Virus record (IMG/VR): IMGVR_UViG_3300048577_000134
Coordinates: 1 to 39,549 of that record
Length of the DNA: 39,549 nucleotides
Reading direction: 5' to 3' (one strand)
Source of the DNA: a virus
Taxonomy: Duplodnaviria; Caudoviricetes
Shown here: positions 355 to 28,743 of the stretch, piece after piece
How the letters are laid out: every line of letters starts with the position of its first letter
Numbering within the stretch: the first letter of the stretch is position 1
Notes under the pieces: model-generated
Database searches by the model: none
Told to the model about the DNA's origin: nothing
Seen by the model: the letters and a program-made list of their open reading frames with translations, nothing else
Made by a program: the position numbers and the translations under genes

Positions 355-738
355 TTAAATGCCGTCGGCCTGCCCGCCACGGAACCGGCGGTGATACGCT
401 TGCCGGTATAGGTTGGCCCGCTTGATCATATCTGTCGCCTGGGCCTCAAATGAGGCGATGGCATGGTTGATCTCATCCACCGAGCAGGCGGACCAGAGTT
501 TATAGCCAGGAGAGCCAGGGAAGCTAACGACGACGGGAGCAGCGACACTGGCGATTTTCCTGACCTTGCGCTCGCTGACGCCTCCCATCATTGGGGCGAT
601 CTCTACGGCGGTCATCCAGCCTTTGTTTTTGTCGGACTTCGCCCCAACCGACAGCACGCAAACAAGGCTCTTTACTTGCTCAGGGGTCACTTCCGGAGCA
701 GGCAATTTGAGGCCTAGTTCTTGCGTTCCGTCGAGCAT
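355..738 (-). CDS. Putative winged-HTH DNA-binding protein
   Basis: WMTAVEIAPMMGGVSERKVRKIAS...PGYKL resembles a wHTH. ATG at 738 lies 1 nt after the upstream stop; 762 is an alternative start. Confidence 0.6.
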   Translation of the reverse strand: MLDGTQELGLKLPAPEVTPEQVKSLVCVLSVGAKSDKNKGWMTAVEIAPMMGGVSERKVRKIASVAAPVVVSFPGSPGYKLWSACSVDEINHAIASFEAQATDMIKRANLYRQAYHRRFRGGQADGI

Positions 739-739
739 G

Positions 740-1294
740 TCAGAATGGATCACCTTCGCCATTGTTTGCAGCCGCGGAAGCGACAGCGGGAGCGGCTGTG
801 ACGGTCGGGGTAAATGCTGGGCTTGGCTTGCTGTGATACCCAGTGCGCCGCGCATTGCGCGCCCGCATAGTCATGAGACGCTTGCCGATGGCGTCTGGGT
901 CAAGTTGCTCAAACGTCTCTCCTGCGGCCTTCTGTTGGCCCGCAAAGCGGTCTCTGCGCAGCTTTCCGCTGCCTTGGCGACCATACGCCTGGCCCTCGTG
1001 CCAATCGGCCTGCCTGGCCTTATTATAGGCCCTGTAATCGGTCATGCAGTCGACCCACGCGGCAGCCTTTTCCAGGGAGTCCGGATGCGCGATGTGGTCG
1101 AGATAGACAAACAGGGCCGTAATCTCATTGGGACCAAAAGCAGGACTGCTTGTGGTGACCATCGGACCGCGCACCTCGGACATGCAGAAGAGTACCTGGT
1201 CCCGGCGCAGGTCGTCGTCCTTTGAGTCCCAGCTCTTGGCGACGCAAGCCTTGCTCCAGAGTGAGAAATACCGGGTGCGAGTTGCGGGAGTCAT
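740..1294 (-). CDS. Hypothetical early protein (weak resemblance to Mu gp16/GemA)
   Basis: 184-aa ORF co-oriented with the early operon. The DDDLRR...TSS motif spacing is only suggestive. Confidence 0.6.
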   Translation of the reverse strand: MTPATRTRYFSLWSKACVAKSWDSKDDDLRRDQVLFCMSEVRGPMVTTSSPAFGPNEITALFVYLDHIAHPDSLEKAAAWVDCMTDYRAYNKARQADWHEGQAYGRQGSGKLRRDRFAGQQKAAGETFEQLDPDAIGKRLMTMRARNARRTGYHSKPSPAFTPTVTAAPAVASAAANNGEGDPF

Positions 1295-1327
1295 GTTGGT
1301 AGAGGGTTGATTTTTATTTTTTCGCCG

Positions 1328-1354
1328 ACGCCGCAGGGATAGGCCCTGCGGCGT
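1328..1354. promoter_or_regulatory. 11-bp perfect hairpin downstream of the VR2 hairpin
   Basis: ACGCCGCAGGG-ATAGG-CCCTGCGGCGT; no U-tract follows it on either strand. Confidence 0.55.
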
Positions 1355-1360
1355 GAAGGC

Positions 1361-1378
1361 GCCCTGCTTTCGCAGGGC
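1361..1378 (-). promoter_or_regulatory. DGR target-recognition hairpin/cruciform of VR2
   Basis: Minus strand GCCCTGC-GAAA-GCAGGGC starts in the stop codon right after the IMH, matching the GC-rich stem with GAAA loop known from BPP-1. Confidence 0.8.
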
Positions 1379-2196
1379 TAAACAAGCTCCAAGTGATCAC
1401 AGCAGGCGCGCGCCCCGAAGACGCTGTTGGAATCCCAGGGCGAATCGTACCAAACCACGCAACGAGAGCCGCAGTTCGCGCCGCCGCCCCAACTGCCGCC
1501 GGCCAGCGGAGCGCGCATCTTTTCTGCGCTGAGTACGTCGGTTGGATCACTCGCCGGATTGAGCCACACCCAGCGTGTTCCAGTCGCCTGCATTACGCCC
1601 CAGCGCGAGGTCCGAGGTGAATCGAGTTGGACGTTTTCCTGGTAGCCGTCCGGCGCCGAGCGCTCGCGCACTCCAACAGCTAGGCGGTGGTATTCGTCAA
1701 GCGTCGGCAGGCGCTTTCCTTCACGAGCCAGGAGGGAGACTGCCTTGAAGAGATTCAGGCCGGAAATAATGCGACCATTTCCGTCAGCAAAAAGCCAGAT
1801 GGATGACCAAAATCTGCCCTCGACCAAGGTCATGCCACGCGGGTCACGACAGAGCGGCCTCCATGCGGAATCCCAAAGCGAGAACGGATTCCACTGCGGC
1901 GTGGAGTCTCCTCCGTCGAAGGCCGGAGCGCAACTTCCAGGCGAGTAGAAGGCGCCGCCTACGACCTGGGAGGCGGGAGCATCGCTACCCGCATTGACGA
2001 GGGAGAGGTCGCCCTTCTTGGAGAGCGCGATGTCGTAGTTCTTGCCTGGGGTAAGGTCCGCTTCAACGTGGACGGAAGTTCCGGATTTGATTTCGACATA
2101 GCCGTCGGCGGTGATGACGAGAGCCTGCGTGCGTGCGCGCAGCTCGGATTTTTCGACCACATGGAAAAGTGGTCCGCGGGATAGTTTCTTGATCAT
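1378..2196 (-). CDS. Second (remote) DGR target: shortened Mtd paralogue with CLec-fold variable domain
   Basis: SLWD..WRP..DPRGMTLVEGRFW, GKRLPT..EY, TSRWGVMQATG..W.W and C-terminal GARACCDHLELV match BPP-1 Mtd motifs. Carries VR2. Confidence 0.92.
   Translation of the reverse strand: MIKKLSRGPLFHVVEKSELRARTQALVITADGYVEIKSGTSVHVEADLTPGKNYDIALSKKGDLSLVNAGSDAPASQVVGGAFYSPGSCAPAFDGGDSTPQWNPFSLWDSAWRPLCRDPRGMTLVEGRFWSSIWLFADGNGRIISGLNLFKAVSLLAREGKRLPTLDEYHRLAVGVRERSAPDGYQENVQLDSPRTSRWGVMQATGTRWVWLNPASDPTDVLSAEKMRAPLAGGSWGGGANCGSRCVVWYDSPWDSNSVFGARACCDHLELV
1397..1501 (-). repeat. DGR variable repeat VR2
   Basis: 105 nt align ungapped to TR 27486-27590 with 12 mismatches, all at TR adenines; all 83 non-A positions are identical. 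Confidence 0.96.
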
Positions 2197-2201
2197 GGGA
2201 T

Positions 2202-2471
2202 TTACTGTTTTGCGACGGGCACGACGGCATAGCCGGTGGACTCGTCAAAGATTTGCGGGCAGCGTTCGCGTGCCCAGGGCTCGATAAGTGAACCGGCGAC
2301 CTGCTTTGCGATGCGCTTGCTACGCGAAATCGCGCGGCGGGCGTCGCGCGGCTTGGTGAAAAAGACAACAGGCTTACCAGGGAGTAGAATTCCTCCGCGG
2401 CTAAGCCCGGACACGTTGAGCATCGAGCAAAGCTCGCAGCCCTTCGTGACGATGTATCCGCAGGTTTTCAC
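2202..2471 (-). CDS. Hypothetical protein
   Basis: 89-aa ORF tightly packed in the early operon (GTG start). Confidence 0.6.
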   Translation of the reverse strand: MKTCGYIVTKGCELCSMLNVSGLSRGGILLPGKPVVFFTKPRDARRAISRSKRIAKQVAGSLIEPWARERCPQIFDESTGYAVVPVAKQ

Positions 2472-2474
2472 GGG

Positions 2475-2597
2475 TTACTTGCGGTTGATCTTCACGCGGA
2501 AGATTGAGCGGATGGACGCTCCGGTTACTTCGACCAGGATGACGGTGCCTGCCCAGGTCCAGAAGTTGGAGTGGATGAACTGGAGGATTTCTAGCAT
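2475..2597 (-). CDS. Small single-pass membrane peptide (40 aa)
   Basis: MLEILQFIHSNFWTWAGTVILVEVTGASIRSIFRVKINRK; fills the gap between neighbours. Confidence 0.55.
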   Translation of the reverse strand: MLEILQFIHSNFWTWAGTVILVEVTGASIRSIFRVKINRK

Positions 2598-2601
2598 GGT
2601 A

Positions 2602-2736
2602 TCAGGGTTTTGATTGTTCGAGTTCGACAGGGATGGACTGCGGGAGGGTTGGGCCTTTTGTTGTTGCGCAAGCCGAGAGCATGAACAGCGCGGCAAGCGC
2701 GAGGGCGACGAGGCCCTTAGTGCGGTTTGTTTTCAC
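2602..2736 (-). CDS. Small lipoprotein (44 aa)
   Basis: GTG start overlaps the upstream TGA. Basic N-terminus, hydrophobic core and lipobox LSA-C. Confidence 0.65.
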   Translation of the reverse strand: MKTNRTKGLVALALAALFMLSACATTKGPTLPQSIPVELEQSKP

Positions 2737-3197
2737 GGTAGGATGATTTGCTGGACGGTGAGGCGCTCGGCCTCGGTGAATGTGAAGAAAGCCCGCTGCT
2801 GTGGCTCCCAGGCGCTCCATGAGCCATCCAGGATCCAGAGATTGACCTCGTGCCAGCCCTTGCCGTCGCTGCGCAGGTATTTGCAGGCAGCGACGGCGAG
2901 GCTTTCGGCTTCGGATGGCACCTGGTCGTCTGGCATCTGGCGGAACAGGTCTATTGCCTCAAGAGCAGCGCGGAGCGCGAAATGCTCGCACTGGTTTGCC
3001 CGCTTTAGCCAGGTGATCTGCCCTCGGGCTATCTCAAACTCCCATAGGTAGGTGGAGAACGGCCCCTCAACCCATTTGCGCGTGACCGCGCAGTAGCGGT
3101 CATTCATGAAGATCGGCCCCTGAATGTAACTGCACGGAAACTGAGCCGCCAAGGCGGCGACCAGTTCAGAGGAGGCGTAAACGCGGGCGGTGCTCAT
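2733..3197 (-). CDS. Putative papain/transglutaminase-like cysteine hydrolase (Agglutinin_C-like)
   Basis: QCEHFA ... WHEVN ... WEPQ follows the DCDDFA/HAxN/EPQ motif pattern. Confidence 0.6.
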   Translation of the reverse strand: MSTARVYASSELVAALAAQFPCSYIQGPIFMNDRYCAVTRKWVEGPFSTYLWEFEIARGQITWLKRANQCEHFALRAALEAIDLFRQMPDDQVPSEAESLAVAACKYLRSDGKGWHEVNLWILDGSWSAWEPQQRAFFTFTEAERLTVQQIILP

Positions 3198-3208
3198 GGC
3201 GTGTGGAG

Positions 3209-3739
3209 CTAGTTGGCCGCGGTTACGATCTTTCCGGCTGCCTCTTCGAGCTTCGGTTCGATGAAGAAAGCCTCGTCCTGAACAACGCGGAGGCCGACAG
3301 AGCGAAGGCCTTTGTCGTCGAGTTCTCCGCGCGTGTGCGCAGCCAGGACTCCCTCTTTATCGAGTTCTTCCTTGGTTCGAACGAAGGTGCGGTCGACGAC
3401 TTCGAGGACGCGCTTAAAAGTCCATCCAGAAATGGTCTTAAGCGTCGGGTTTCCGGTGCGAAATCCGAGGCGACCGTGCAGGAAGTCGATGGACTTTTTG
3501 TCAGCGAATTCCTCCGGGGTTGCTTCAGCCCATTGCTGGAGCAGACCGCTCTTCTGTTCGATCTGGCGCTCCAGTGCTTCGATGCGGCCCTCGTATTTCT
3601 GCCGGGCGGCGGTGATGTCCTGGTTGAGCTGGGCTTTTAGGGCATTGAGTTCGGCGGTATTGGCGGCGACCTCGCCGAGTGTTTGCTCGGCTTCGGAGCG
3701 GGTAGAGACGACTGAGCGTGTGAGGCGGATGCGTGTCAT
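3209..3739 (-). CDS. gam: Mu Gam-like host-nuclease inhibitor
   Basis: Coiled coil followed by KKSIDFLHGRLGFRTG, RTKEELDKE and GLRVVQDEAFFIEP. Confidence 0.92.
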   Translation of the reverse strand: MTRIRLTRSVVSTRSEAEQTLGEVAANTAELNALKAQLNQDITAARQKYEGRIEALERQIEQKSGLLQQWAEATPEEFADKKSIDFLHGRLGFRTGNPTLKTISGWTFKRVLEVVDRTFVRTKEELDKEGVLAAHTRGELDDKGLRSVGLRVVQDEAFFIEPKLEEAAGKIVTAAN

Positions 3740-3746
3740 GGTGTGG

Positions 3747-3995
3747 TTATGCTGAGGTTTTTACTGAGAGGATGGTGAGTTCGGCCAAGCGCTGTTCAGC
3801 GGACTGACGCGGAAGCGCCGGGATGCCGGAAGCCATTGGCTTGGGCTCGACGATTTCGACGTCGCCGAAATTGTGACGGGCGATGCGCGCGGCGTCGGCG
3901 GGAGTCGGATAGTTTCCGACGGCGTCTTCTGGTGATTCGTTCTCCTGGCGGATGGACCAGCCTCCGCGGTTGTTTGGTTCTACGAAGTATTTCAT
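3747..3995 (-). CDS. DUF2188-like small protein
   Basis: YFVEPNNRGGWSIRQE...YPTPADAARIAR pattern. Confidence 0.6.
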   Translation of the reverse strand: MKYFVEPNNRGGWSIRQENESPEDAVGNYPTPADAARIARHNFGDVEIVEPKPMASGIPALPRQSAEQRLAELTILSVKTSA

Positions 3996-4006
3996 GGGAT
4001 GTGGGC

Positions 4007-4288
4007 TTAGTTGTTCTTCTGTTCTGGGTCATCGAGCGGGCGGATGAGGCTCGCATTGTCCGGGTGGCGGATAAGGAGCCCGCGAAGGGAGAGGTAGCGC
4101 ACTGCTGCCGCGATATCCTCGGCGAATTCTCCGCGCTCGTAGTCGGTCAGGTCGTACCACCAGCCGCTGTGTTTTCCGGAGTGCCTATCTCCAGGCAGGC
4201 GCGTCTCGATGTCGCAGCGTGCGTAGCCGTAGGCGATCAGGCGCTCGACTTCGGCCAGCGACATGGAGGCGATCTTGCTGAGGGTCAT
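4007..4288 (-). CDS. Hypothetical protein
   Basis: ATGA-coupled start at 4288; 93 aa. Confidence 0.65.
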   Translation of the reverse strand: MTLSKIASMSLAEVERLIAYGYARCDIETRLPGDRHSGKHSGWWYDLTDYERGEFAEDIAAAVRYLSLRGLLIRHPDNASLIRPLDDPEQKNN

Positions 4289-4743
4289 GATGCGGCCCTC
4301 CTGTTCAGCTTCTCGACGCGTTCGGTGATGATAATCTTCTCTTGATATGAAGAGAACTCCACGAATCCACCTACGCGCAGACCTTTTAGGTTTGTTACCC
4401 TGCCTCCGCACCACACCCAGGATTGGAAGGGGGTGCAATCGAAGACAATTCCATCCCCGGCTATAACCCAGTGGAGGAAGTCCTGCCCCTTGTCTTCGAA
4501 GTCGATCTCGGTGAAGACTTCATTCGCGCCGATTGGGCGGGCGATAAAGGTGGATTCTGTCGTGCGCTCAATAACGATTCGCTCCACAGGCAAGAGCAGC
4601 CACTTGGCTGCTGCTCTCAGCGCTGCCGAGAGTGCGTCTGATGTGCAGCTGGCTGTCTTCGCCTGTTTGCCGCTACCTGCGCGTGCGTGGTGTCCGTCTC
4701 CGTGCGAGCGGACTGTGATTTCGACGGAAATGGAATCGCTCAT
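4285..4743 (-). CDS. Hypothetical protein
   Basis: ATGA-coupled start at 4743 with GGAGG RBS; 152 aa. Confidence 0.7.
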   Translation of the reverse strand: MSDSISVEITVRSHGDGHHARAGSGKQAKTASCTSDALSAALRAAAKWLLLPVERIVIERTTESTFIARPIGANEVFTEIDFEDKGQDFLHWVIAGDGIVFDCTPFQSWVWCGGRVTNLKGLRVGGFVEFSSYQEKIIITERVEKLNRRAAS

Positions 4744-4967
4744 GACGCACCTCCCATCAAGAGCCGCTCCGGGGTTACTGCGCGGTACGCCGCGATTGCC
4801 GCGTTTGCCAACTCTGCGGGCTGCCATCCAAAGAGGATCGACTTTGCTTCAGCTGAGTTTTCCATGACGATATCTTCGACCAGAATTTCTACGAGAAACG
4901 CGGTGTATTCTTCGTCGGTCCAGCGCTTGCGCTTACTGTTTTTCTTGCCGCTCATGACGCACCTCCC
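4737..4967 (-). repeat. 19-bp direct repeat at consecutive gene junctions (4737-4755 and 4949-4967)
   Basis: Minus strand GGGAGGTGCGTCATGAGCG occurs twice, each copy holding an RBS and the stop/start overlap. Confidence 0.85.
4740..4955 (-). CDS. Hypothetical protein
   Basis: ATGA-coupled start at 4955 with GGAGG RBS; 71 aa. Confidence 0.65.
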   Translation of the reverse strand: MSGKKNSKRKRWTDEEYTAFLVEILVEDIVMENSAEAKSILFGWQPAELANAAIAAYRAVTPERLLMGGAS

Positions 4968-6127
4968 TCGTCGTCTTCGTCGGCGATTACCGGCACAGGG
5001 ATCGTCGATGCTGCTTCGAGGTGGGATAGCTTGATGCACTTCGATTTCTCGTCGCGCGAGAGGCGGTACGCTTTCTGCAGCCGTCCGTAGAGAATGCGCT
5101 GACGACCAGGGAGGCGGCTCCATTCCTTCAGGATGCGCACGGAACGATCACCGCCGGCTATCTGCATGCGCTCGACAATGGCGCGCAGATCACGCATGGG
5201 AGTGTATTCTGGCAGCTCGTAGATGGTCTCAAGTCCACCCAAGCGTCCGACAAGCTGCTCGAAATAGGCCTTGTCCTGGCCGTCTCCGATGGCCCGCGTG
5301 AAGATTGGGGTCCAGGATAAGAAGATCGTGCACTGAGTGTCGTCCTGGAACTCCATGAGCCAGTCGATAGTCGCCTGGATCGCGTGCTTGCGCGGATCGT
5401 AGAGCTTCTGGAAGTTGTCGATGATGATCCTTCGCTTGGAGTTCACGCAATCAGCCAAACGCTCCATACGCTCAGAGCTGCCAGCTGAGAGAGGGACGCC
5501 GAAGGCCCACCCGAGCTTCATCAGGAACCTGGCCAGGGAGCCGCGCGTGGCTTCGATCCGCCGCGTCGATCCGTGGTTGCGCACGAGTTCGAGGCGTTTG
5601 GTCATGCGGCTCTTTCCGGTTCCAGTGCTGCCCACGATGGCGCCCCACTTGTTAACCGTCTCCGGGGCGCTGACCGCGTCGTAGTAGTCGAGTATTTCTT
5701 GCCAGGTCGGTGTCTCAATGAACGGCATGCCACCGGCTTCACTGTTGAAGATGGCCCAATTCCTGAGCCAAGCTGCGACTTCTTTCAGGTTCTCGATGGA
5801 CCCGAGCGTGCGGCTCGGGTTCTTTGGGTCCGGGCGGAAGTAGCGCCCGCTCAGTACCTGGTAGAAGTACTGGTCTGAGTAGTTGAGACGTCCTTCGTTG
5901 CGGACGAGATTGGCAATCTGGGCATATTGCCCGGAGAACTCCGTCTGATTTAGCGAGTAGATGAAGGCAACGTCCTCCTTCACCTCCTCGGGATAGTGAG
6001 CGATCTTGGCGTCGAACTGGCCGATGTCCTTGCGGATCACCATGCGTTCAGCCGTCTCGCTGTTGGGTCCCTTTGTGATGAGCTGGCTATTGCTCGTTTC
6101 GGGAATTTGTGTAGCGGTAGTAGGCAT
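4952..6127 (-). CDS. MuB-like AAA+ transposition ATPase
   Basis: Walker A GSTGTGKS, Walker B-like IIIDN, FEQLVGR motif; directly downstream of the transposase. Confidence 0.88.
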   Translation of the reverse strand: MPTTATQIPETSNSQLITKGPNSETAERMVIRKDIGQFDAKIAHYPEEVKEDVAFIYSLNQTEFSGQYAQIANLVRNEGRLNYSDQYFYQVLSGRYFRPDPKNPSRTLGSIENLKEVAAWLRNWAIFNSEAGGMPFIETPTWQEILDYYDAVSAPETVNKWGAIVGSTGTGKSRMTKRLELVRNHGSTRRIEATRGSLARFLMKLGWAFGVPLSAGSSERMERLADCVNSKRRIIIDNFQKLYDPRKHAIQATIDWLMEFQDDTQCTIFLSWTPIFTRAIGDGQDKAYFEQLVGRLGGLETIYELPEYTPMRDLRAIVERMQIAGGDRSVRILKEWSRLPGRQRILYGRLQKAYRLSRDEKSKCIKLSHLEAASTIPVPVIADEDDEGGAS

Positions 6128-6161
6128 ATCGGTTTTCCTTTTATCGGGGATTTACTGGTTA

Positions 6162-6202
6162 GGGCCGCGTGGTGTTGTCGCACTCGCGGCCCGTTTTCTT
6201 TT
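6162..6202 (+). terminator. Hairpin with T-tract between the A and B genes (terminator polarity on + strand)
   Basis: GGGCCGCG...CGCGGCCC stem followed by GTTTTCTTTT on the + strand, antisense to the operon. Confidence 0.4.
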
Positions 6203-6211
6203 CGGGGAAAG

Positions 6212-8386
6212 TTAGAGTTGGTCTTGCAGGCTTTGCAGACGGCGCGCGCGGTCTGCTGCGGCCTTGTTGTTTTGCTTTACGAGGCGCGTCTGCGCCTGGG
6301 TGCGCTGCTTGGACTCAACGCGAGCTTGCGAGGCCCCAGCGGCGAAAGATCGGCCCGCCCTGGCGGCGTCTTCCACGGATGCGTTATGCTCGCGCATGGA
6401 GATAAGCTCGGCTTCGTCTTCGGAGTGAACTTCTCGGATGCGTGCGAGGGTGGCGCGTTTCGGGGCGAGCGTCTCGGCATAGGCTTTACCGCGGGCTTCG
6501 TCGTCGGTTGGATCGACACCCTGCCATCGCGTTATGGTTCCTAGGTATTCGAGTGAATCCACCGGAGTGAGGTGGAGCGACTCGGGCTCGTCGTCGTAGA
6601 AGAACGCGCGATATTCTTTTCCGGGGACAAGGAGACCTTGGTCGACGCCCTGGGCTGAGTAGAAGACGAGAGAGTCAGCACCGTTGCGCTTGATGATGAT
6701 CTGGCGCTTGGTGGTGACGACGACTGGCTTAAGGGCGTCGGCAGCGAGCGGGATGAAGGCCGACTCGGGGATCGGGGTCCATTCCATCTCGGAGCGCAGG
6801 CGGATGGCACGCATTAGGCGGCTTTCCGGCTTTGTGCGGTGAATGATTTCGACGCCAGCGTCGATCAGGGCGCGCTGCTCTGGAGAGGGTAGCTGCCCAT
6901 AGATCGTCCAGTCGTCCTTCTCGCTCATGCGCCACTCGGTAACCTGCTCAAAGCCGCGGCAGCGGTGGTCGCGGAAGCGGTTCACGCGGTCGAAGATTTC
7001 GCGAACCTTGGCGACGGCGTCGACGTAGCGAAGGAATGGGAGGCGCAGCAGGTCGACATACTCGTCAGAGATCGCTTCATTGCTGAGAGTGGTCACGGCG
7101 TACTTTTCCATGTCGGGGAAGGCTGCGTGTCCATTTGTGCGCTCCTTAGAGCCGCGCTGGCCAGGCAGGCCGGACATTTCGTTTTTAATAAGGTTGAAGC
7201 CTGACTCGATCAGGCCCTTGCCCTCGGCGCGCCACTTGCCGCCGCTCTCGCGGAACCCGTGCTGGAGGATGAGCCCCTGGTTATCCCTGAGGAGGCCGGA
7301 GCGCTTGATCAGCACGCGGCCCTGGAAAGACTGGCGTATTACCTCTTCCACTTCGCGCGTGACGGATGCGGTGTTGTTCTCGACCAGGAGCGTGATGGTG
7401 CGGTCTTTTGGCAGACCGCGAAGGACACGCAGCAGGCCAATGATAAACCAGCGCATGTGCGAGGCGCCGAGGCTGCGGCGGGTGCCGTCGGGCATCTCGT
7501 CTCTCGGCATGATTGCGTGGTGTATCCACGCACCGCTTGCCCAATCCAGCGCGGCGAGGCCCATGCAGTAGTCGATGCCGCGCTTGTAGGCCACCTTGAA
7601 GGGAGCCCAGAAATCGTCGATGATGATGATCTGCCCGAAATAGAGCTTTGTGCGGTCGTTGATGATCTGCGCGAAATGTTCCTCGGCGGCTGCGACTCCA
7701 TGCCGCACCTCGGCCATGTGGGCGGGCTCGGGCAGGAGGCGGTAGAGCTGTCGGTCGCTCCAGCCATCGGGGAAGAAATCGGGCGGGCACTCCGACGGGA
7801 ATGGCTCTCCTGGGAAGCGCCGTTTGAATTCGTCTCTCCAGGTGCCGTAGCCGGGGATAGACTGTTTCCCCTCTGGCCAGATCGCGAGCTTGAGCTGTCG
7901 AAGGGCAGCGGCATCGCCCTGGTCGCGCTGGTATTGTCCGGCGAGGCGAGCGAGGAAAGCGACGAATCCAGGATGGTGTTTCTTGTCGCTCAGCCAGTAG
8001 TTCGGAACGAGAGCTTTCCAGTCACCGGCGCAGACGTAGTTCTCCGGGCGCTTGACGCCGCTCTTGTATCCGCCTCGTGAATATAAGCGGTGTTTGTTGA
8101 GCAGGGTCTTCCAGGAGAAATTGTCGATGCCGAGGAAACGGTCGGCTACCTCCATCGCCTTCGATTTCCGGTTCCTTGCGTGGTGAATTTCCTCGATTGC
8201 GGAGAAGGTGTCATTAACGAAGCGCTGCTGGCTGGCCGACAGCTCATCCCAGAAGGTTTGCAGCTCGTCGTCGGGCACGCGGAAGAGAAGGGTCATTCTC
8301 TCGGCGGGATCGGCCAACGCGGTGCAGGCGCTGGCGGCTACGAGCGGAGCGGGTGAGGTTGGGATGAGTGCGGCCTCTGTGCTCAT
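6212..8386 (-). CDS. MuA-like transposase (RNase H fold)
   Basis: 724 aa. GQIIIIDD, ALDWASG, LLVENN and GKGLIESGFNLIK match the catalytic core layout; upstream of the B ATPase. Confidence 0.85.
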   Translation of the reverse strand: MSTEAALIPTSPAPLVAASACTALADPAERMTLLFRVPDDELQTFWDELSASQQRFVNDTFSAIEEIHHARNRKSKAMEVADRFLGIDNFSWKTLLNKHRLYSRGGYKSGVKRPENYVCAGDWKALVPNYWLSDKKHHPGFVAFLARLAGQYQRDQGDAAALRQLKLAIWPEGKQSIPGYGTWRDEFKRRFPGEPFPSECPPDFFPDGWSDRQLYRLLPEPAHMAEVRHGVAAAEEHFAQIINDRTKLYFGQIIIIDDFWAPFKVAYKRGIDYCMGLAALDWASGAWIHHAIMPRDEMPDGTRRSLGASHMRWFIIGLLRVLRGLPKDRTITLLVENNTASVTREVEEVIRQSFQGRVLIKRSGLLRDNQGLILQHGFRESGGKWRAEGKGLIESGFNLIKNEMSGLPGQRGSKERTNGHAAFPDMEKYAVTTLSNEAISDEYVDLLRLPFLRYVDAVAKVREIFDRVNRFRDHRCRGFEQVTEWRMSEKDDWTIYGQLPSPEQRALIDAGVEIIHRTKPESRLMRAIRLRSEMEWTPIPESAFIPLAADALKPVVVTTKRQIIIKRNGADSLVFYSAQGVDQGLLVPGKEYRAFFYDDEPESLHLTPVDSLEYLGTITRWQGVDPTDDEARGKAYAETLAPKRATLARIREVHSEDEAELISMREHNASVEDAARAGRSFAAGASQARVESKQRTQAQTRLVKQNNKAAADRARRLQSLQDQL

Positions 8387-8388
8387 TG

Positions 8389-9159
8389 TCAGGCTTGCTC
8401 CTTGGCGGCGGCGGCTTCGGCCTTGGAGGCGAGGACGTCGAGTTGGGTTATGCGGTCGTGGGCGAGCTTGCGGAGGGATACCCAGTCCTTGGGCTGCAGC
8501 CAGCGGCGCGCTTGTTTGTCGTTGAGCGCGGCCTGGAGGTCTCCCAGGGCGCGCGTGAAAAGAGCCATGGCTGCCGCGCGATTCTGGCGGGCGAGCTGGT
8601 CGGGCGTGAGCTTCGACTTCTTGTTCTCGTAGTGGACGCGCTTGCCGGTTTCTGGATCGATATTGCGCGGGCTGCGAACTACGCCGTATTCGCGGTAAAG
8701 GTCGGTCAGGCTCCCCTCTCCGAGTACGTCTTTGACCTGACCGGCAATCTGGTCGCGGTAGGCGGTGTCTGACTCGATTTTTGAGAGGAAGTCAGGGGCC
8801 GTTAGGTCGGTAGTTTGCAAATCGGACACAGTGTCCGTTTTGCTTCCGGAACCCAAAAGCGACACAGTGTCGTTTTTGATGGATCGAACCAGAGCCATGT
8901 ATCTCTGGGCAGTGCGTTCGCTGATAAGTGGACAGTGCTTTTCGATCCAAGGCCCGAACTCTGTATGCTTGAGTGACTCCTTGGCTCGCTCGCATAAGAC
9001 ACCAGTGCGGATCGCGAAGACGACCGCCAGTTGGGCGTGTGTCTTTGCGACGGCGTGCGTCTCGTTGATCTCGTTGGCGATTGCCTGGAGGTTTTCGCTG
9101 CTCGCTGTTGCGACCGCTGATTCTTCTACAACTTCAAGGGCTGTTTCTTGGGTTTTCAT
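8389..9159 (-). CDS. DUF3102-domain DNA-binding protein
   Basis: AKESLKHTEFGPWIEKHCPLISERTAQRYM signature. Confidence 0.8.
   Translation of the reverse strand: MKTQETALEVVEESAVATASSENLQAIANEINETHAVAKTHAQLAVVFAIRTGVLCERAKESLKHTEFGPWIEKHCPLISERTAQRYMALVRSIKNDTVSLLGSGSKTDTVSDLQTTDLTAPDFLSKIESDTAYRDQIAGQVKDVLGEGSLTDLYREYGVVRSPRNIDPETGKRVHYENKKSKLTPDQLARQNRAAAMALFTRALGDLQAALNDKQARRWLQPKDWVSLRKLAHDRITQLDVLASKAEAAAAKEQA
8817..8878. repeat. Two tandem palindromes with GACAC-A-GTGTC core inside the DUF3102 gene
   Basis: 8817-8843 (12 of 13 arm pairs) and 8854-8878 (11 of 12); centres are 36 bp apart. Confidence 0.8.
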
Positions 9160-9166
9160 TGGGGAG

Positions 9167-9523
9167 TTATGCGTTGCGGAGCTGTGTCCCGATCCGCTGG
9201 TAAAGAAGTGCTTTCTCCGCGGCCGGCATTAAGTCGACCACCTCGTATAGGCGTGCGCGGAAATCGGATGGTTCGTAATTCGCGGTCTTCGCCAGATATA
9301 TAATCACGCCTGACCTGCGGAATCTCCTGTGTTGGCGCTCACCACTGGCGGCGTTGATTTCGTGCCCCATTAGGCGCTGATCGTCGAAAAGCCTGATAAC
9401 GGTGCGCTCATCGACGCCTATAGCTGATGCAACTTCATCAGCCCGCAGGTACTCCCTGCGCGGCAGCAAGAAATCCAGATGGTCCTGCCATGCCTTTAGG
9501 TCGACTTGTTGGGCGATTGGCAT
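9167..9523 (-). CDS. HTH (Xis/MerR-like) DNA-binding protein
   Basis: YLRADEVASAIGVDERTVIRLFDD; ATG 1 nt after the upstream TAA. Confidence 0.75.
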   Translation of the reverse strand: MPIAQQVDLKAWQDHLDFLLPRREYLRADEVASAIGVDERTVIRLFDDQRLMGHEINAASGERQHRRFRRSGVIIYLAKTANYEPSDFRARLYEVVDLMPAAEKALLYQRIGTQLRNA

Positions 9524-9524
9524 C

Positions 9525-9746
9525 TTAGTTTTTTCTGGCCGCAAAGTTGAGTCTTAGCTGGCGGTGTTTACGGCTGACGCGCTCTAGATCGGCGGCAAGT
9601 GAGCGGCACTGCATGGCCGTTTCCTTGTCGGGCGTCTCTGCTGCGAATGCGTAGTAGAGCGTTATGCGTCGGTCGATTGGCTGTGTCTCTATGGCTTCAA
9701 GTATGAAGTCAGTAAGGACGGCTGATGCTGGTGCTTCGTGTGTCAT
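9525..9746 (-). CDS. Hypothetical protein
   Basis: ATGA-coupled to the Ner-like gene; 73 aa. Confidence 0.65.
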   Translation of the reverse strand: MTHEAPASAVLTDFILEAIETQPIDRRITLYYAFAAETPDKETAMQCRSLAADLERVSRKHRQLRLNFAARKN

Positions 9747-9922
9747 GCTGACATTGCCTCCTTGATTTGTTGCCGCACGCGAGGAAAGCGCCCTCCGTTT
9801 ATCGCGGTCGATACGGTGTCGCGCCGCCTGCCAATTAGCTTTGCGAGTTCTGTGACCGACATGTCTCGCCTGGAAAGCCAGACGTTCACGCTGCGGCGAA
9901 ATTTGTCTTGTGCGGATGGCAT
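9743..9922 (-). CDS. Ner/Cro-like HTH regulator
   Basis: MSVTELAKLIGRRRDTVSTAING; first gene of the early operon, divergent from the repressor. Confidence 0.8.
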   Translation of the reverse strand: MPSAQDKFRRSVNVWLSRRDMSVTELAKLIGRRRDTVSTAINGGRFPRVRQQIKEAMSA

Positions 9923-11126: not shown

Positions 11127-11149
11127 TGTTTCGTAGGATGAATTTTAAT

Positions 11150-12052
11150 ATGAAAACGATACCATTTATCGTATGTATATTCGCGTGCGTCCACGGGGCG
11201 CTCGCTGCATCATGGTCTTTGTCTGAGCGCAGCATCGTTAAGAAGATTCCCGATGTGTTCCTAAAGCACACAGCTGGACCTGTGCTCCAGCCTTCGGATT
11301 CAGACGTTTCAGACGCGATCAGTTTTGGAGCTAAATCAAAGGAAGACGCATCAGTCCTTGATTATGCTTACCTGATCAAAGAGTCAGTGTCGGGATGGCG
11401 TTCCGATGTTATCTATGTGACCGTCTCTACCCCGCTTCACCAGATTGCTCTGCATTCTTTTGAGCAGTCCAAGGCATACCGTTCTGTTGACGAAGAAAAG
11501 GTGTCTTTTCTGCGCAAGGCGAGAGTAGTGAAAATTTCAATATGCCAGCAGTACATGAGTAGGGCTTTTACAGCCATCCCGGTTAAGAGGGATGTAATCC
11601 TGTTGCGAGACGGTGTGCGCGTTAAGCCACTCACGGAAATACAGTCGTACCATGGCGCATTTCCTTTTTCTGATAGAACTGCTGATGTTCAAAGAATGGC
11701 GGGCTTAGAGGGAATTCAGCAGGCGGCTTTAGCGTCTATGCGGGATAGCCTAGCGTCTATGACTCCAGAGCAGAGAAAAGCAATGATACCAAAGCTGCGA
11801 GCGATGGGCGTTAGCGATTCCCAGCTTCGGGCGATACTTGGGGTGGATGTAGAAGGCCTCCAGCGACTTTCGGGGGCGGATAACGCTTCGGCCACTCTGT
11901 CTGTATCTGAATGCGATGGCTTTTTCGAGATATCTGAGCTTCGCAAGCCTGGGAGATACGAAGTTGTGTTTCGAGAGCCCAAGGTGGAATTTGGGGGTGT
12001 GACGCAAGATAAAGAAGTGCGATTCCCTATTTCCTTTTCGAAATTCAGGTAA
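11150..12052 (+). CDS. Secreted/periplasmic accessory (moron) protein, 300 aa
   Basis: Signal peptide MKTIPFIVCIFACVHGALA-A; visibly AT-richer than the core genes. Confidence 0.75.
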   Translation: MKTIPFIVCIFACVHGALAASWSLSERSIVKKIPDVFLKHTAGPVLQPSDSDVSDAISFGAKSKEDASVLDYAYLIKESVSGWRSDVIYVTVSTPLHQIALHSFEQSKAYRSVDEEKVSFLRKARVVKISICQQYMSRAFTAIPVKRDVILLRDGVRVKPLTEIQSYHGAFPFSDRTADVQRMAGLEGIQQAALASMRDSLASMTPEQRKAMIPKLRAMGVSDSQLRAILGVDVEGLQRLSGADNASATLSVSECDGFFEISELRKPGRYEVVFREPKVEFGGVTQDKEVRFPISFSKFR

Positions 12053-22081: not shown

Positions 22082-22891
22082 ATGTTCGACGAATTCCAAA
22101 CCATTCTGCCGACGCCGCGCCCCGTAGTGTCATGGGCTGGCGGAAAGCGGAAGCTTCTGAAGTACCTGTTGCCGCTTATCAAGCCGCACACCTGCTATGT
22201 CGAGGTGTTTGGCGGAAGCTTTGCCCTCGGGATTGCAAAGCCGCCTAGCCAGGTCGAAGTCGTCAACGATATCAATGGAGACCTGGTCTCGTTCTATCGC
22301 TGCTGCAAATATCATCTCGATGCGCTTCTGGACGAGCTGGACCTCGTACTGAATTCGCGCCGCGATTTCGAGGACTACTGCGCGCAGCCAGGTCTCACTG
22401 AGATTCAACGCGCTGCTCGTTGGTTCATTCGCAACAAGCTTTCATTCGCCGGGCATGGCGAGCATTTCGCGATTCAACGCACGCACGGGCTGTCATCCAG
22501 AGCGCAGCGCGTGCTTGCCATTCGCTCGCTCAATCGACGCCTGGACAGGACGACCATTGAACAACAGTCCTGGGAATACGTCGTCAAGACCTACGACCAC
22601 GAAGAGACCTTCTTCTTTTTCGATCCGCCATATCCGGAGCCTGGTGGCGAGCTTTATGGCGGGTGGGACGAGTCAACCCTGGAACGCTTTTGCGCAGCGA
22701 TAAAGAAGCTGCGCGGCCAGTGGCTCTTTACGTTCAAGTCTTGTGACCGCGTCCGCGAGCTAATGGCGGGCTACACGTTCAAGACGATCAACCGCGCCCG
22801 CGGAATCGCAAATAATCACGGTGTGAAGAAGGCAGCTCGTTACGTGGAGGTCATTATTACGAGTGACCGGATCAAAGAGGAGGCTGCGTGA
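22082..22891 (+). CDS. dam: Dam-family (D12) DNA adenine methyltransferase
   Basis: WAGGK, YVEVFGGS, EVVNDIN and DPPY motifs; specificity not determinable from sequence. Confidence 0.93.
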   Translation: MFDEFQTILPTPRPVVSWAGGKRKLLKYLLPLIKPHTCYVEVFGGSFALGIAKPPSQVEVVNDINGDLVSFYRCCKYHLDALLDELDLVLNSRRDFEDYCAQPGLTEIQRAARWFIRNKLSFAGHGEHFAIQRTHGLSSRAQRVLAIRSLNRRLDRTTIEQQSWEYVVKTYDHEETFFFFDPPYPEPGGELYGGWDESTLERFCAAIKKLRGQWLFTFKSCDRVRELMAGYTFKTINRARGIANNHGVKKAARYVEVIITSDRIKEEAA

Positions 22892-25710: not shown

Positions 25711-27081
25711 ATGAATCTTATCCTTGAAACAACCACGGGGCAGCTCGTGCCTTCTGGGGTTGCGCCGCGCCTCCCGCGCGGAGGTGTCGAGACGGTTCTG
25801 GTGCAGTTCGTGACGAATGGTGTCGCGGCGCTGCTTCCGGCCGGAGCGCCCATTGCGCTCAAGCTGTATGCTCCGAGCGACCTGGCAAACCCCGTAGCTA
25901 CGCTGTCCGTATTCGCGGCCGTCGCAGCCGATCTGCTTTACTCCGGCCAGCTCGATACGCTGGCAGGAGGACTGGCATACCTGGAGCGAGGCACGCTTCA
26001 TGCGCGAGTCTCATACGGCACTCCGAACGTTGACTCGGCTTGGTTCCAGCTACTCTACGGCTCCTCACAGAGCGCATCCGGATCAAAACCGGTGAGCCTG
26101 GTCATTCCACAGCCTGTCGGCATGTCCTTGCTCTCGAAAGTCGATCTCGCTTCTCCGTGCCTGACGGCTACGGGCCTTGCAACGATGGCGATCAAAGCCG
26201 GCACGGCTATTGTCGTGGGTGGATCGCTGATCCAATTCGCAAACCAGACAGCGGTCGCAATGCCGGCGCACACCGTCGGAAAGGACTATGCTGTCTATGC
26301 TTGCTCTGATGGCGCATTGATCTCTTCGGAGAACTTCACCGCTCCTGCTGGATATACGACGACGACATCGCTCAAGATCGGCGGATATCACTACGGCCCA
26401 GGAGCGCTCGCAACGGCTCAGGCCGGAGGCGACACGACCCCGCAAATCATAGCGAAGTCGATCTGGGATTTGAAATACAAGCCCAGCGCGAACGATCCAA
26501 GGGGATTCTCCCGCACTCCCCACGGCTGGCGTGCACTGTATCCGCTGAACACTACGCCCCATCTGCTCGGCGTCTCCGCATACAATGCGACAATTGCCGA
26601 TGGTGCATCGCTCCCGGTAATCCCGCCAATTTTCGGAGGCGATGGCGCGGCCACATATCCAAACTTCAGCCGCTTTGTTGCCGAGGAGCTTCTCGCTGCA
26701 TTTGGCTGTCGGCTGCCTTCGACAGAAGAAAACGCGGCGTCTGCTTACGGCGTCACCGAAGGCACGTCTCGCGGGACCGATCCGGGCGTCACGTTATGCG
26801 ATGCTCCGCGGACGTCGCAGTATATGTATCAAGCCGCCGGCAATATGTGGGAGTGGCTCGCAGGCGAAACGGACAACCCGTCCGGCTCTTTCGCCTGGCA
26901 GGCCGCTCCGCAGGGGCGTGGCAGCGTCTATCACGTTACCCTCCGCGCGCCCTTGGGCGGCGGCTTTTGGGGCTTCGGCGCGGACTGCGGCTCTCGTTGC
27001 GTGTATTGGAACAGTTCGCCCTGGTATTCCGGCGACAACCTCGGGGCGCGCGCCTGCTGTGACCACATTCAACTTGTATGA
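25711..27081 (+). CDS. mtd: DGR target 1: Mtd-like tropism determinant (456 aa) with a distinct N-terminal domain
   Basis: IKAGT, GKDYAVYACSDG, NFTAPAGYT, KIGGYHY, AQAGGDTTPQI, SIWDLKYKP..DPRG, TIADG, FGGDG, GRGSVY and GARACCDHIQLV are colinear with BPP-1 Mtd. Confidence 0.94.
   Translation: MNLILETTTGQLVPSGVAPRLPRGGVETVLVQFVTNGVAALLPAGAPIALKLYAPSDLANPVATLSVFAAVAADLLYSGQLDTLAGGLAYLERGTLHARVSYGTPNVDSAWFQLLYGSSQSASGSKPVSLVIPQPVGMSLLSKVDLASPCLTATGLATMAIKAGTAIVVGGSLIQFANQTAVAMPAHTVGKDYAVYACSDGALISSENFTAPAGYTTTTSLKIGGYHYGPGALATAQAGGDTTPQIIAKSIWDLKYKPSANDPRGFSRTPHGWRALYPLNTTPHLLGVSAYNATIADGASLPVIPPIFGGDGAATYPNFSRFVAEELLAAFGCRLPSTEENAASAYGVTEGTSRGTDPGVTLCDAPRTSQYMYQAAGNMWEWLAGETDNPSGSFAWQAAPQGRGSVYHVTLRAPLGGGFWGFGADCGSRCVYWNSSPWYSGDNLGARACCDHIQLV
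26956..27063 (+). repeat. DGR variable repeat VR1
   Basis: 108 nt align ungapped to TR 27484-27591 with 13 mismatches, all at TR adenines. Confidence 0.97.
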
Positions 27082-27476
27082 GCGACGCGGAAGCGGCGCG
27101 GTCCGAAAGCGCAAATGAACATGATGCACCCTATGAACAACTGGCAGTCGTCGAACGCTACGAGCGGTTCGTCGATTACCTTTATCCCATCCTCATGGGA
27201 GTGCGTCGTGCTCACTACATTGTCCGAGATCGCGCCATTGGCGCGATGCTTGATCAAGTCTCATTATTTCAAGAGGCCGGGAAATCAAACCAGGTCTCAA
27301 AACTCTACGCAGCGGATGCTGGTCTCGCCACGCTGCGGTTTCTTTTGCGGTTCATGGCTTCTCCGAGTCGCAAGCTCATCTCTGCCCGTCAACACCAGGT
27401 CGCATCTGTCCTCCTGGCTGAATCAGGCAAAATGCTGGGCGCGTGGATTCGGAGGGTCAGGACTGCGAAGCGATAA
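27078..27476 (+). CDS. avd: DGR accessory variability determinant
   Basis: VERYE...YLYP, AGKSNQVSKLYAADAGLA.LRF.LRF, E.G.MLGAWI match bAvd. Confidence 0.95.
   Translation: MSDAEAARSESANEHDAPYEQLAVVERYERFVDYLYPILMGVRRAHYIVRDRAIGAMLDQVSLFQEAGKSNQVSKLYAADAGLATLRFLLRFMASPSRKLISARQHQVASVLLAESGKMLGAWIRRVRTAKR
27082..27099 (+). promoter_or_regulatory. Imperfect DGR hairpin of VR1
   Basis: GCGACGC-GGAA-GCGGCGC (one mismatch) directly after the stop, at nearly the same offset as the VR2 hairpin, inside the avd 5' end. Confidence 0.55.
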
Positions 27477-27483
27477 ACAGGGC

Positions 27484-27591
27484 AGCGGCGGCAATTGGGG
27501 CAACGGCGCGAACTGCGGCTCTCGTTGCGTGAATTGGAACAATTCGCCCTGGAATTCCAACAACAACATCGGGGCGCGCGCCTGCTGTGAC
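27484..27591 (+). ncRNA. DGR template repeat (TR)
   Basis: Between avd and RT. Ten AAY codons and 23 adenines. Ends in the GC run GGGGCGCGCGCC and an IMH* that diverges from both VRs. Confidence 0.97.
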
Positions 27592-27756: not shown

Positions 27757-28743
27757 GTGGGGAAAAAACACCGAAATTTGTACCCGGCCATAATTGACAT
27801 GGACAACCTTCGCACAGCGTTTAGTCTGACGCGGAGGGGCAAAGGTAATACCCTGGGCTTTCTCGAATACAAAGAGGACGCGGAGGTCCGCCTCTTTGAG
27901 CTACACGAGGCGCTCGCCTCCGGCTCTTACACTCCGGCTCCTCCAGCCGAGTTTATCGTCTATGAGCCAAAGCCTCGGCAAATTTCCGCTCTGCGCTTCC
28001 CGGATCGCGTAGCTCAGCACGCGCTCTGTCGCGTGATCGGCCCCATCTTCGACTCGACGCTCCTGTCGCGTTGCTACGCCTGCCGTGTCGGTCGCGGCAC
28101 GCACTATGGCGTCCTGGCCGTACAGTCAGAGCTTCGGAGGATGCTCGCAGCCCAGGGCGACCTCTATTTTCTCAAGACGGATTTTCGCCACTACTTCGCG
28201 TCGATCAATCGCCCGCGCCTCTGGCGAGAAATCGAGCGAAAGATCAGCTGCCGGAAAACGCTCGAACTCATCGAGCGCTTCCTCCCGCGTGAAGGCTGCG
28301 GTCTGCCCATCGGTAACCTTACCAGCCAGCTTTTCGCAAACGTTTACGGAGGCATTTTCGACCGCTGGATGGTCTCTCAAGGTGTCCGTCATTGGCATCG
28401 GTACATGGACGATGTCGTCGTCCTGGGCGGTGCCGAATGGCGCCCGATGGTTCAGCTTCTCAAGTCCGCCGAGTCCTTCGCCCGCGATGAAATGGGCCTG
28501 GGGCTCTCGCGTTGGATGGTCGCCAACTACGAGCGCGGCATCAACTACCTGGGCTATCGCATTTTTCCGACGCACAAGCTGCTCCGCAAATCCTCCGTGA
28601 TTCGCGCCAGGCGCAAGCTTCGAGTCTTCGAGCGCCGCGGAAATACCGAGGCTCGCTCTCGCTTCCTGGCTTCGTGGATGGGTCACGCCTCCTGGGCGGA
28701 CAGCCATAATCTCCTTTCATCGCTCAACCTCAACATCGCATAA
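27757..28743 (+). CDS. brt: DGR reverse transcriptase (328 aa)
   Basis: GTG start MGKKHRNL; YEPKPRQISAL, DRVAQHAL, GTH, LKTDF, GLPIGNLTSQLFANVY, RYMDD, YLGYRI. Intact frame. Confidence 0.97.
   Translation: MGKKHRNLYPAIIDMDNLRTAFSLTRRGKGNTLGFLEYKEDAEVRLFELHEALASGSYTPAPPAEFIVYEPKPRQISALRFPDRVAQHALCRVIGPIFDSTLLSRCYACRVGRGTHYGVLAVQSELRRMLAAQGDLYFLKTDFRHYFASINRPRLWREIERKISCRKTLELIERFLPREGCGLPIGNLTSQLFANVYGGIFDRWMVSQGVRHWHRYMDDVVVLGGAEWRPMVQLLKSAESFARDEMGLGLSRWMVANYERGINYLGYRIFPTHKLLRKSSVIRARRKLRVFERRGNTEARSRFLASWMGHASWADSHNLLSSLNLNIA

Follow-up and report, generated by a model that had tools for sequence, protein, structure and literature searches.

Phage diversity-generating retroelements (DGRs) are treated in the literature mainly as host-range devices, and distal targets carry no tested function assigned to them (what we say of cited papers refers to the consulted parts of each text). 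Many phage-associated DGRs have one adjacent and one non-adjacent target (PMC5758913), and the survey in PMC8144416 could not detect remote DGR targets. In BPP-1 (PDB 1YU0-1YU4, 2IOU; PMC2408619, PMC5758913), an avd-template-reverse transcriptase cassette stands behind Mtd, a target with an adenine-specific C-terminal variable repeat (VR), a sandwich and FGE-type lectin fold, and a downstream hairpin. Mtd binding depends on avidity (PMC2408619); the beta-prism and beta-sandwich promote the Mtd trimer, and other DGR lectin-fold proteins are monomers (PMC6328139). Quimbyvirus (PMC8008677) and four gut prophages (PMC12629997) have one DGR serving a tail-module target and a distal one on the other strand. 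The distal Quimbyvirus target lies among methylases and was read as non-structural (PMC8008677), the second VR of the four prophages lies near counter-defence genes (PMC12629997), and the distal targets of both were read as tied to phage-host conflict (PMC8008677, PMC12629997). Phage Lagaffe has two Mtd-like targets under one template (PMC11792537).

The window analysed here, a single virus record of 39.5 kb, shares traits with each of these systems. Its tail module contains a complete DGR (target 1, avd, template and reverse transcriptase) with the cassette behind an Mtd-type target, as in BPP-1, and a distal second target on the other strand, as in Quimbyvirus and the gut prophages. We show that one template has rewritten the binding tips of both targets, whose genes are 25 kb apart, and that the distal one, target 2, is predicted to be a structurally trimmed Mtd placed among the early genes of a transposable phage.

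Genome layout and likely host

Gene calls with Pfam and PHROG matches gave the window the layout of a B3-type transposable phage. The leftward arm encodes a cro/ner-like HTH protein, transposase, B ATPase and Gam; terminase, Mu-type portal, protease, capsid and tail proteins are encoded in the rightward arm, and the terminase shares 57% identity with its counterpart in Pseudomonas phage B3. The B ATPase is 52% identical to an Actomonas aquatica protein and 48-50% identical to proteins in Opitutae and other Verrucomicrobia genomes, identities that make an Opitutae bacterium the likely host. Between the repressor and the late genes lies a moron-like 304-aa gene (11138-12052, plus strand) with low GC3 (0.50) and a hydrophobic N-terminus, whose product matched no family. 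The head-tail block includes a D12-class adenine methyltransferase (22082-22891, plus strand), and a 1355-aa tail protein with 30-nt (10-aa) repeats in its C-terminal part (38258-38713, plus strand) is a second candidate adhesin or fibre.

One template has rewritten two distant targets

The components of the retroelement and its two targets are as follows.

25711..27081, plus strand: target 1, a 456-aa tail-module Mtd homologue
26958..27062, plus strand: VR1, in target 1; 12 differences from the template, all at adenines
27078..27476, plus strand: avd (bAvd, PF22296; Pfam match, open frame)
27486..27590, plus strand: template repeat (TR), common to both targets
27757..28743, plus strand: DGR reverse transcriptase (RVT_1); frame open from 27115, likely start GTG 27757
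1378..2196, minus strand: target 2, 272 aa, Mtd-type beta-sandwich and C-type lectin; lacks an N-terminal anchor, insert and beta2-beta3 loop trimmed
1397..1501, minus strand: VR2, in target 2; 12 differences from the template
1361..1378, minus strand: hairpin 1, after the target 2 stop; perfect 7-bp stem and GAAA loop
1328..1354, minus strand: hairpin 2, after target 2; 11-bp stem

All 12 differences between VR2 and TR fall at TR adenines over 105 nt, with adenines at 22 of the 105 TR positions; VR1 shows the same 12-of-12 pattern, whose computed chance is about 3e-10. Six sites are altered in both VRs, and the bases differ between them at 6/6, indicating that VR2 was not copied from VR1 and that the two were rewritten independently. 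Target 2 is thus confirmed as a second, remote target of the phage's DGR, and the original prediction was right to call it hypervariable. VR2 has 11 diversifiable codons (10 AAY and one ATC), giving about 2e12 protein sequences; counting one further codon in the invariant end, whose adenine is unaltered in both VRs, gives 9.2e12. The final 22 bases of VR2 equal those of TR, meaning that the 3' homing end is intact. No third VR was found within the window.

Hairpin 1 is presumably of the DGR target-recognition type, after BPP-1. On the coding strand, hairpin 2 is followed by A-rich and not U-rich sequence, so it is not an intrinsic terminator for target 2. The hairpin after VR1 (27081-27098), which overlaps the avd start, has one mismatch where its VR2 counterpart is perfect. 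One DNA read run (share 0.05) yielded four single 151-nt pieces, all in the left arm and none over VR1, VR2 or TR.

Target 2 is a trimmed Mtd fold

Target 2 aligns with target 1 at 32% identity over 311 columns, beginning at target 1 residue 149. Its sandwich starts at about residue 1, with an in-frame stop upstream, and some 140 N-terminal residues of target 1 are absent. The original prediction had seen this loss correctly and put it at roughly 130 aa, which is too short: target 1 starts at ATG 25711, the same place as its 456-aa homologue P0184, so that the missing part is about 140 aa. The four Mtd motifs that it had quoted from the 272-aa frame are all present, and the internal deletions it reported correspond to two segments, with 28 versus 57 and 27 versus 40 residues between fixed anchors in target 2 and target 1, respectively. 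The frame is intact, and its GC3 of 0.68 is typical of the genome.

An AlphaFold model of target 2 built from 66 sequences reached a pLDDT of 85.8, and a Foldseek search with it returned Mtd (1yu0) as the first match (E 3.9e-25, TM 0.89). Target 2 also matched PHROG 11262 (E 5e-55); Pfam mtd_2nd gave no match to it. By this model, target 2 keeps the Mtd beta-sandwich and FGE-type C-type lectin fold. In a profile alignment to Mtd, the second deletion corresponds to Mtd residues ~310-336, including Tyr322 and Tyr333. These tyrosines lie on the beta2-beta3 loop, which in Mtd extends into the neighbouring subunit's binding site and braces it (PMC2408619); target 1 has kept aromatic residues at both places, and target 2 has neither. 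A hydropathy heuristic found no hydrophobic N-terminus or membrane span in target 2 (maximum 12-residue mean 1.28 in the first 40 residues; maximum 19-residue mean 0.87), in keeping with the earlier reading that it has no signal peptide.

The N-terminal domain of target 1 (window 25711-26130) is also the leading domain of some 20 Verrucomicrobia phage proteins (~250 aa) that have another C-terminal domain, which makes this a swap point for binding domains. It has a lead-level resemblance to BppU_N (18% of the members of a cluster) and would fit a virion anchor.

Target 2 lies late in an early-type gene run

Target 2 belongs to a leftward run with the following members.

355..9922, minus strand: early-type run of 18 genes by a codon-model gene call; largest gap 84 nt
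9743-9922, minus strand: cro/ner-like HTH
6212-8386, minus strand: transposase (Mu/DDE match by ESM Atlas features and fold; Pfam and PHROG searches gave no match)
4952-6127, minus strand: B ATPase (B-type ATPase match)
3209-3739, minus strand: Gam (Pfam)
2602-2736, minus strand: 44-aa lipoprotein-like gene, upstream of target 2
2475-2597, minus strand: 40-aa membrane peptide gene, upstream of target 2
740-1294 and 355-762, minus strand: two conserved genes after target 2, the terminal genes of the run

Target 2 is gene 16 of 18, separated from its preceding neighbour by 5 nt, and small accessory genes also stand before it. Its co-orientation with transposase, B and gam, noted previously, extends to the entire run, and this placement suggests that it is expressed early. 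A promoter and terminator scan found 4 promoter-like sites versus 3.3 expected. The product of 2602-2736 presumably carries a lipobox. Among the early neighbours of target 2, PADLOC returned no match and no known anti-defence gene was identified. We assume some resemblance of gene 740-1294 and its positional counterparts to GemA; Pfam and PHROG gave no match, and we do not claim the assignment.

Close relatives of target 2 and its origin

A metagenome scan for relatives of target 2 provided, among the best 80 of 127 matches, four close loci (L168, L169, L170 and L171). The L169 homologue is 54% identical to target 2 and keeps both hairpins, the first with a two-sided change in its stem; downstream come a 184-aa gene and then a homologue, 63% identical, of window gene 355-762. 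In L171 the order is transposase, B, Gam, a PolX-like gene, the short Mtd (its start overlapping the PolX-like stop) and a gpF-like gene. The L168 protein (P0002) is 47% identical to target 2, shares both deletions and is preceded by an HTH_17 gene. L170, a contig that has no upstream DNA, continues from its short Mtd through two genes without assignment, gpF and gpG to another Mtd-type start; this second gene, with an mtd_2nd domain (4629-4862), lies 3.7 kb downstream of the short Mtd, where the contig ends. In the 0.3-3.9 kb downstream of the target 2 relatives, none of the 4 loci has avd or reverse transcriptase.

Outside the VR, target 2 and L169 differ with pS 0.80 and pN 0.35, and target 2 and L168 with dS 1.95 and dN 0.55; this excess of synonymous over nonsynonymous divergence indicates purifying selection on the gene. 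The original prediction had named decay in relatives as a possible outcome, and what we see is constraint outside the VR together with retained hairpins. At L168 1574-1600, after the target gene, is a start like the first residues of avd (as in the window and L172), followed by unrelated sequence; it is a hint that the homing end of the target 2 lineage came from a target-avd junction, with the L168 stretch as a possible relic.

A B3-type prophage of Rariglobus (L082/L167) has the same flanking genes, with a Dam methylase and an integrase-like gene in the place of target 2, indicating that this position is an accessory slot; no Mtd was found in the incomplete records of this prophage. A 202-aa gene ends the early run in both L169 (1578-2186) and L082 (17117-17725). 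It has no match anywhere in the window, whose left end (1-354) may lack or have replaced it. Searching for relatives of the B ATPase gave 6 loci in genomes, while in viral contigs the single protein found none and an alignment found 1; no Mtd-like gene was near these relatives, nor was there a match in three incomplete records searched whole.

We built a careful tree from 28 chosen rows with the VR removed; it is unrooted and has long branches. There, target 1 falls inside the full clade (99/96) with target 2 outside it, the short clade stands apart (98/95), and target 2 with P0002, P0102 and P0103 forms a third branch (97/91). In a quick 32-row tree, L169-L171 join this branch, making 7 sequences (SH-aLRT 91; short clade 98). 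On these trees, target 2 and its six relatives constitute a third lineage of Mtd, which in other transposable phages occurs towards the end of early operons (L169, L171 and L168). The original prediction's designation of target 2 as a paralogue of target 1 holds only in the sense of an old homologue. A recent copy or direct sister of target 1 was rejected (p-AU 4.8e-5; 0.04 with P0002 added), and an old origin of the whole lineage beside the target 1 subclade (target 1 and P0005) was not rejected (p 0.08). The lineage may either have left the tail-type Mtds long ago, in convergence with the short clade, or share ancestry with the short clade. As the two are separate lineages, the context of the short clade described below is only an analogy for target 2.

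Short early and full tail-type Mtds

To place target 2 within the wider family, we took the best 80 of 301 and best 80 of 343 matches from viral scans and a further 15 from a third scan. Mtd-like frames in these loci, 199 in all, were split by the length of the beta2-beta3 loop, full at 35-46 residues and short at 19-21, loci were grouped at 75% identity, and neighbours within 6 kb were labelled by PHROGs (110 recurring clusters, then 65/94 further proteins, mainly for unlabelled loci). Among 58 short-loop groups, 53 have an early-function neighbour, 2 a tail label and 5 no label. Virion-gene neighbours accompany 24 of 27 full-loop groups (tail in 21, another virion gene in 3), with lysis and SSB genes at one of the remaining groups and no structural label at two; because each class forms a single clade, these counts amount to two or three independent contrasts and not 85. 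The target 2 lineage has loops of 27-29 residues (27 in target 2, against 38-46 in tail-tip Mtds). The two-aromatic loop motif, which target 2 lacks, is present in 17 of the 27 full targets but in just 1 of the 82 short ones, and 67 of 82 short targets have a template-like partner within the locus that differs only at adenines.

Over 209 shared columns outside the VR, the charged fraction is 0.196 +/- 0.017 in short proteins (n=81) and 0.130 +/- 0.017 in full ones (n=25). Target 1 has 0.139, and target 2, at 0.22, exceeds the range of the 25 tail-type proteins (maximum 0.191). No more than 25 residues precede the sandwich in 72 of 81 short proteins and in 6 of 25 complete full-type proteins. 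One anchorless tail-type Mtd, P0005 (L172), lies in a virion-gene region directly before avd. Loop, charge and context discriminate the two classes and the missing anchor does not; since 6/25 tail-type Mtds begin at the beta-sandwich, the absence of an anchor is not diagnostic by itself, and as an argument of the original prediction for a non-virion role it is weak evidence.

Fusions also occur in the short clade. In L086 (4018-5193, minus strand) an Mtd is in frame with an HTH_3 domain (Pfam), and in L006 (9395-10816) with an extra ~160-aa domain; a stretch in frame with the Mtd of L008 (9614-10822) is presumably MazG-like. The L008 and L006 extensions have no Pfam match. N-terminal fusions in L113, L131 and L137 look like off-frame run-ins and were left uncounted. 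A phrog_2045 gene lies near short-clade cassettes, often right after the reverse transcriptase (L101 12644-13966 and 25 other loci).

Possible functions of target 2

We hold with moderate confidence that target 2 is probably an early, soluble, non-virion binder acting on host proteins inside the infected cell. It would be made with transposase, B and Gam before virion assembly and would stay soluble in the cytoplasm, no longer a braced tail-tip trimer. There its partner might be a host protein that differs from one host to the next, with defence or sensing proteins the most plausible; a high local concentration would replace the avidity given by the virion, and a repertoire of about 2e12 tips would let progeny keep pace with the varying target. 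Counter-defence probably carries about half the weight of this explanation, the identity of the target being a guess. The early context, relatives in early operons, the short-loop pattern, the matching charge and the lost inter-protomer loop support an intracellular binder. Against it, the short Mtds of L170 and L171 precede gpF/gpG-type virion morphogenesis genes, anchorless Mtds can sit among virion genes (6/25), and a soluble form would lack the avidity on which Mtd binding depends (PMC2408619). The earlier proposal of an early, probably non-virion diversified binder is therefore supported in part, through the context of the relatives, the class pattern, charge and loop loss. A bolder generalization, which we offer tentatively and with some doubt, is that an Mtd adhesin has been turned at least twice into a soluble, antibody-like intracellular binder by the same edits (anchor dropped, bracing loop cut, surface charged, early operon), with retrohoming evolving defence inhibitors; here one template would run both counter-defence and a host-range switch.

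The two-domain Mtd fold, the anchorless full-loop Mtds among virion genes (6/25, with that of L172) and the position of the L170 and L171 short Mtds ahead of gpF/gpG-type genes would favour a second adhesin on the virion, or an Mtd co-subunit that needs no anchor of its own to dock, either of them widening host range or binding surfaces, as suggested for the two Mtd-like targets of Lagaffe (PMC11792537). We consider this unlikely for target 2, which is on the opposite strand 25 kb from the tail genes, is more charged than any tail-type protein in the comparison, has lost the loop that braces the trimer's binding site and branches outside the tail-type clade. The template common with the tail adhesin puts similar tips within reach of both proteins, and the lipoprotein-like and membrane-peptide genes lie 280-540 nt upstream of target 2. 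Mu-type early regions hold exclusion genes. Target 2 could on these grounds mask the phage receptor or block superinfection; in the lysogen or at lysis, it would bind the receptor, the machinery that exports the receptor, or a protein of an incoming phage. That role seems quite unlikely for a protein with no predicted signal peptide or membrane span, and VR1 and VR2 differ at every co-altered site, which leaves their tips unmatched. In addition, many short-clade cassettes have their own template and no adjoining tail target. The envelope neighbours were not found beside relatives of target 2, so receptor masking together with them, raised in the original prediction, receives no support.

There is a slim chance that the role of target 2 is to adjust the phage's own programme, be it transposition, lysis-lysogeny or late activation, via a host or phage regulator, with diversification adapting it to host orthologues. 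Target 2 does directly precede the two conserved terminal genes of the early run, and the HTH fusion of L086 exists in the short clade; yet the related Rariglobus prophage has the same flanking genes with no target 2 found in its incomplete records, and a fixed regulatory partner would not need about 2e12 variants. That target 2 is a decaying or neutral copy, mutated only via its retained homing signal, is highly improbable and largely refuted by purifying selection. Its long branch and deletions would agree with decay, but the frame is intact with genome-typical GC3, the predicted fold is confident, and relatives at 47-54% identity keep the trimmed form and the hairpins with synonymous sites near saturation.

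Comparison with known systems

If target 2 does bind host defence proteins, it would represent a programmable, fast-evolving phage counter-defence scaffold, and a compact 272-aa binder with so many possible tips would be useful for display. Short-clade members are present in Agrobacterium and Rhizobium genomes, which makes the question testable in cultured relatives. Here a single template and a common ancestral fold unite the tail-type and the early-type target, so that the changes that take an adhesin off the virion can be followed at the level of single residues on a solved structure.

We found no paper on early-operon Mtd derivatives or on Verrucomicrobia Mu-like DGRs, and further cases of this kind may appear in Table S1 of PMC5758913 and in Extended Data Fig. 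3c of PMC12629997. The consulted parts of PMC5883640, PMC5006420, PMC12636319 and bioRxiv 10.64898/2026.03.05.709809 add nothing on early-operon or distal Mtd targets.

Compared with BPP-1 Mtd, target 2 is more charged, carries neither a beta-prism nor any other N-terminal domain, and is missing the Tyr322/Tyr333 loop and most of one insert; its gene lies 25 kb from the template, on the opposite strand and among early genes. Quimbyvirus and the four prophages are human-gut phages with the second target near methylases (as given in the consulted text), whereas the window is a B3-type transposable phage with a likely Opitutae host, and its distal target is a recognisable Mtd derivative whose structural trimming can be mapped. 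The Lagaffe targets are 40% identical and were read as two receptor binders, with no early-operon position or loop loss given in the consulted text (PMC11792537). The short early-region clade (alignment A6) also begins at the beta-sandwich and shows the cut loop, high charge and early-gene neighbours; its loop is 19-21 residues long and its own avd and reverse transcriptase are usually beside it, whereas in the target 2 lineage, which forms its own branch and includes a remote target, the loop has 27-29 residues and most of the first insert can be missing as well. For the idea of a distal, non-structural phage DGR target, Quimbyvirus is a published precedent (PMC8008677). New here are a third Mtd lineage in transposable phages, a template in common with the tail Mtd and a mappable loss of the trimer-bracing loop.
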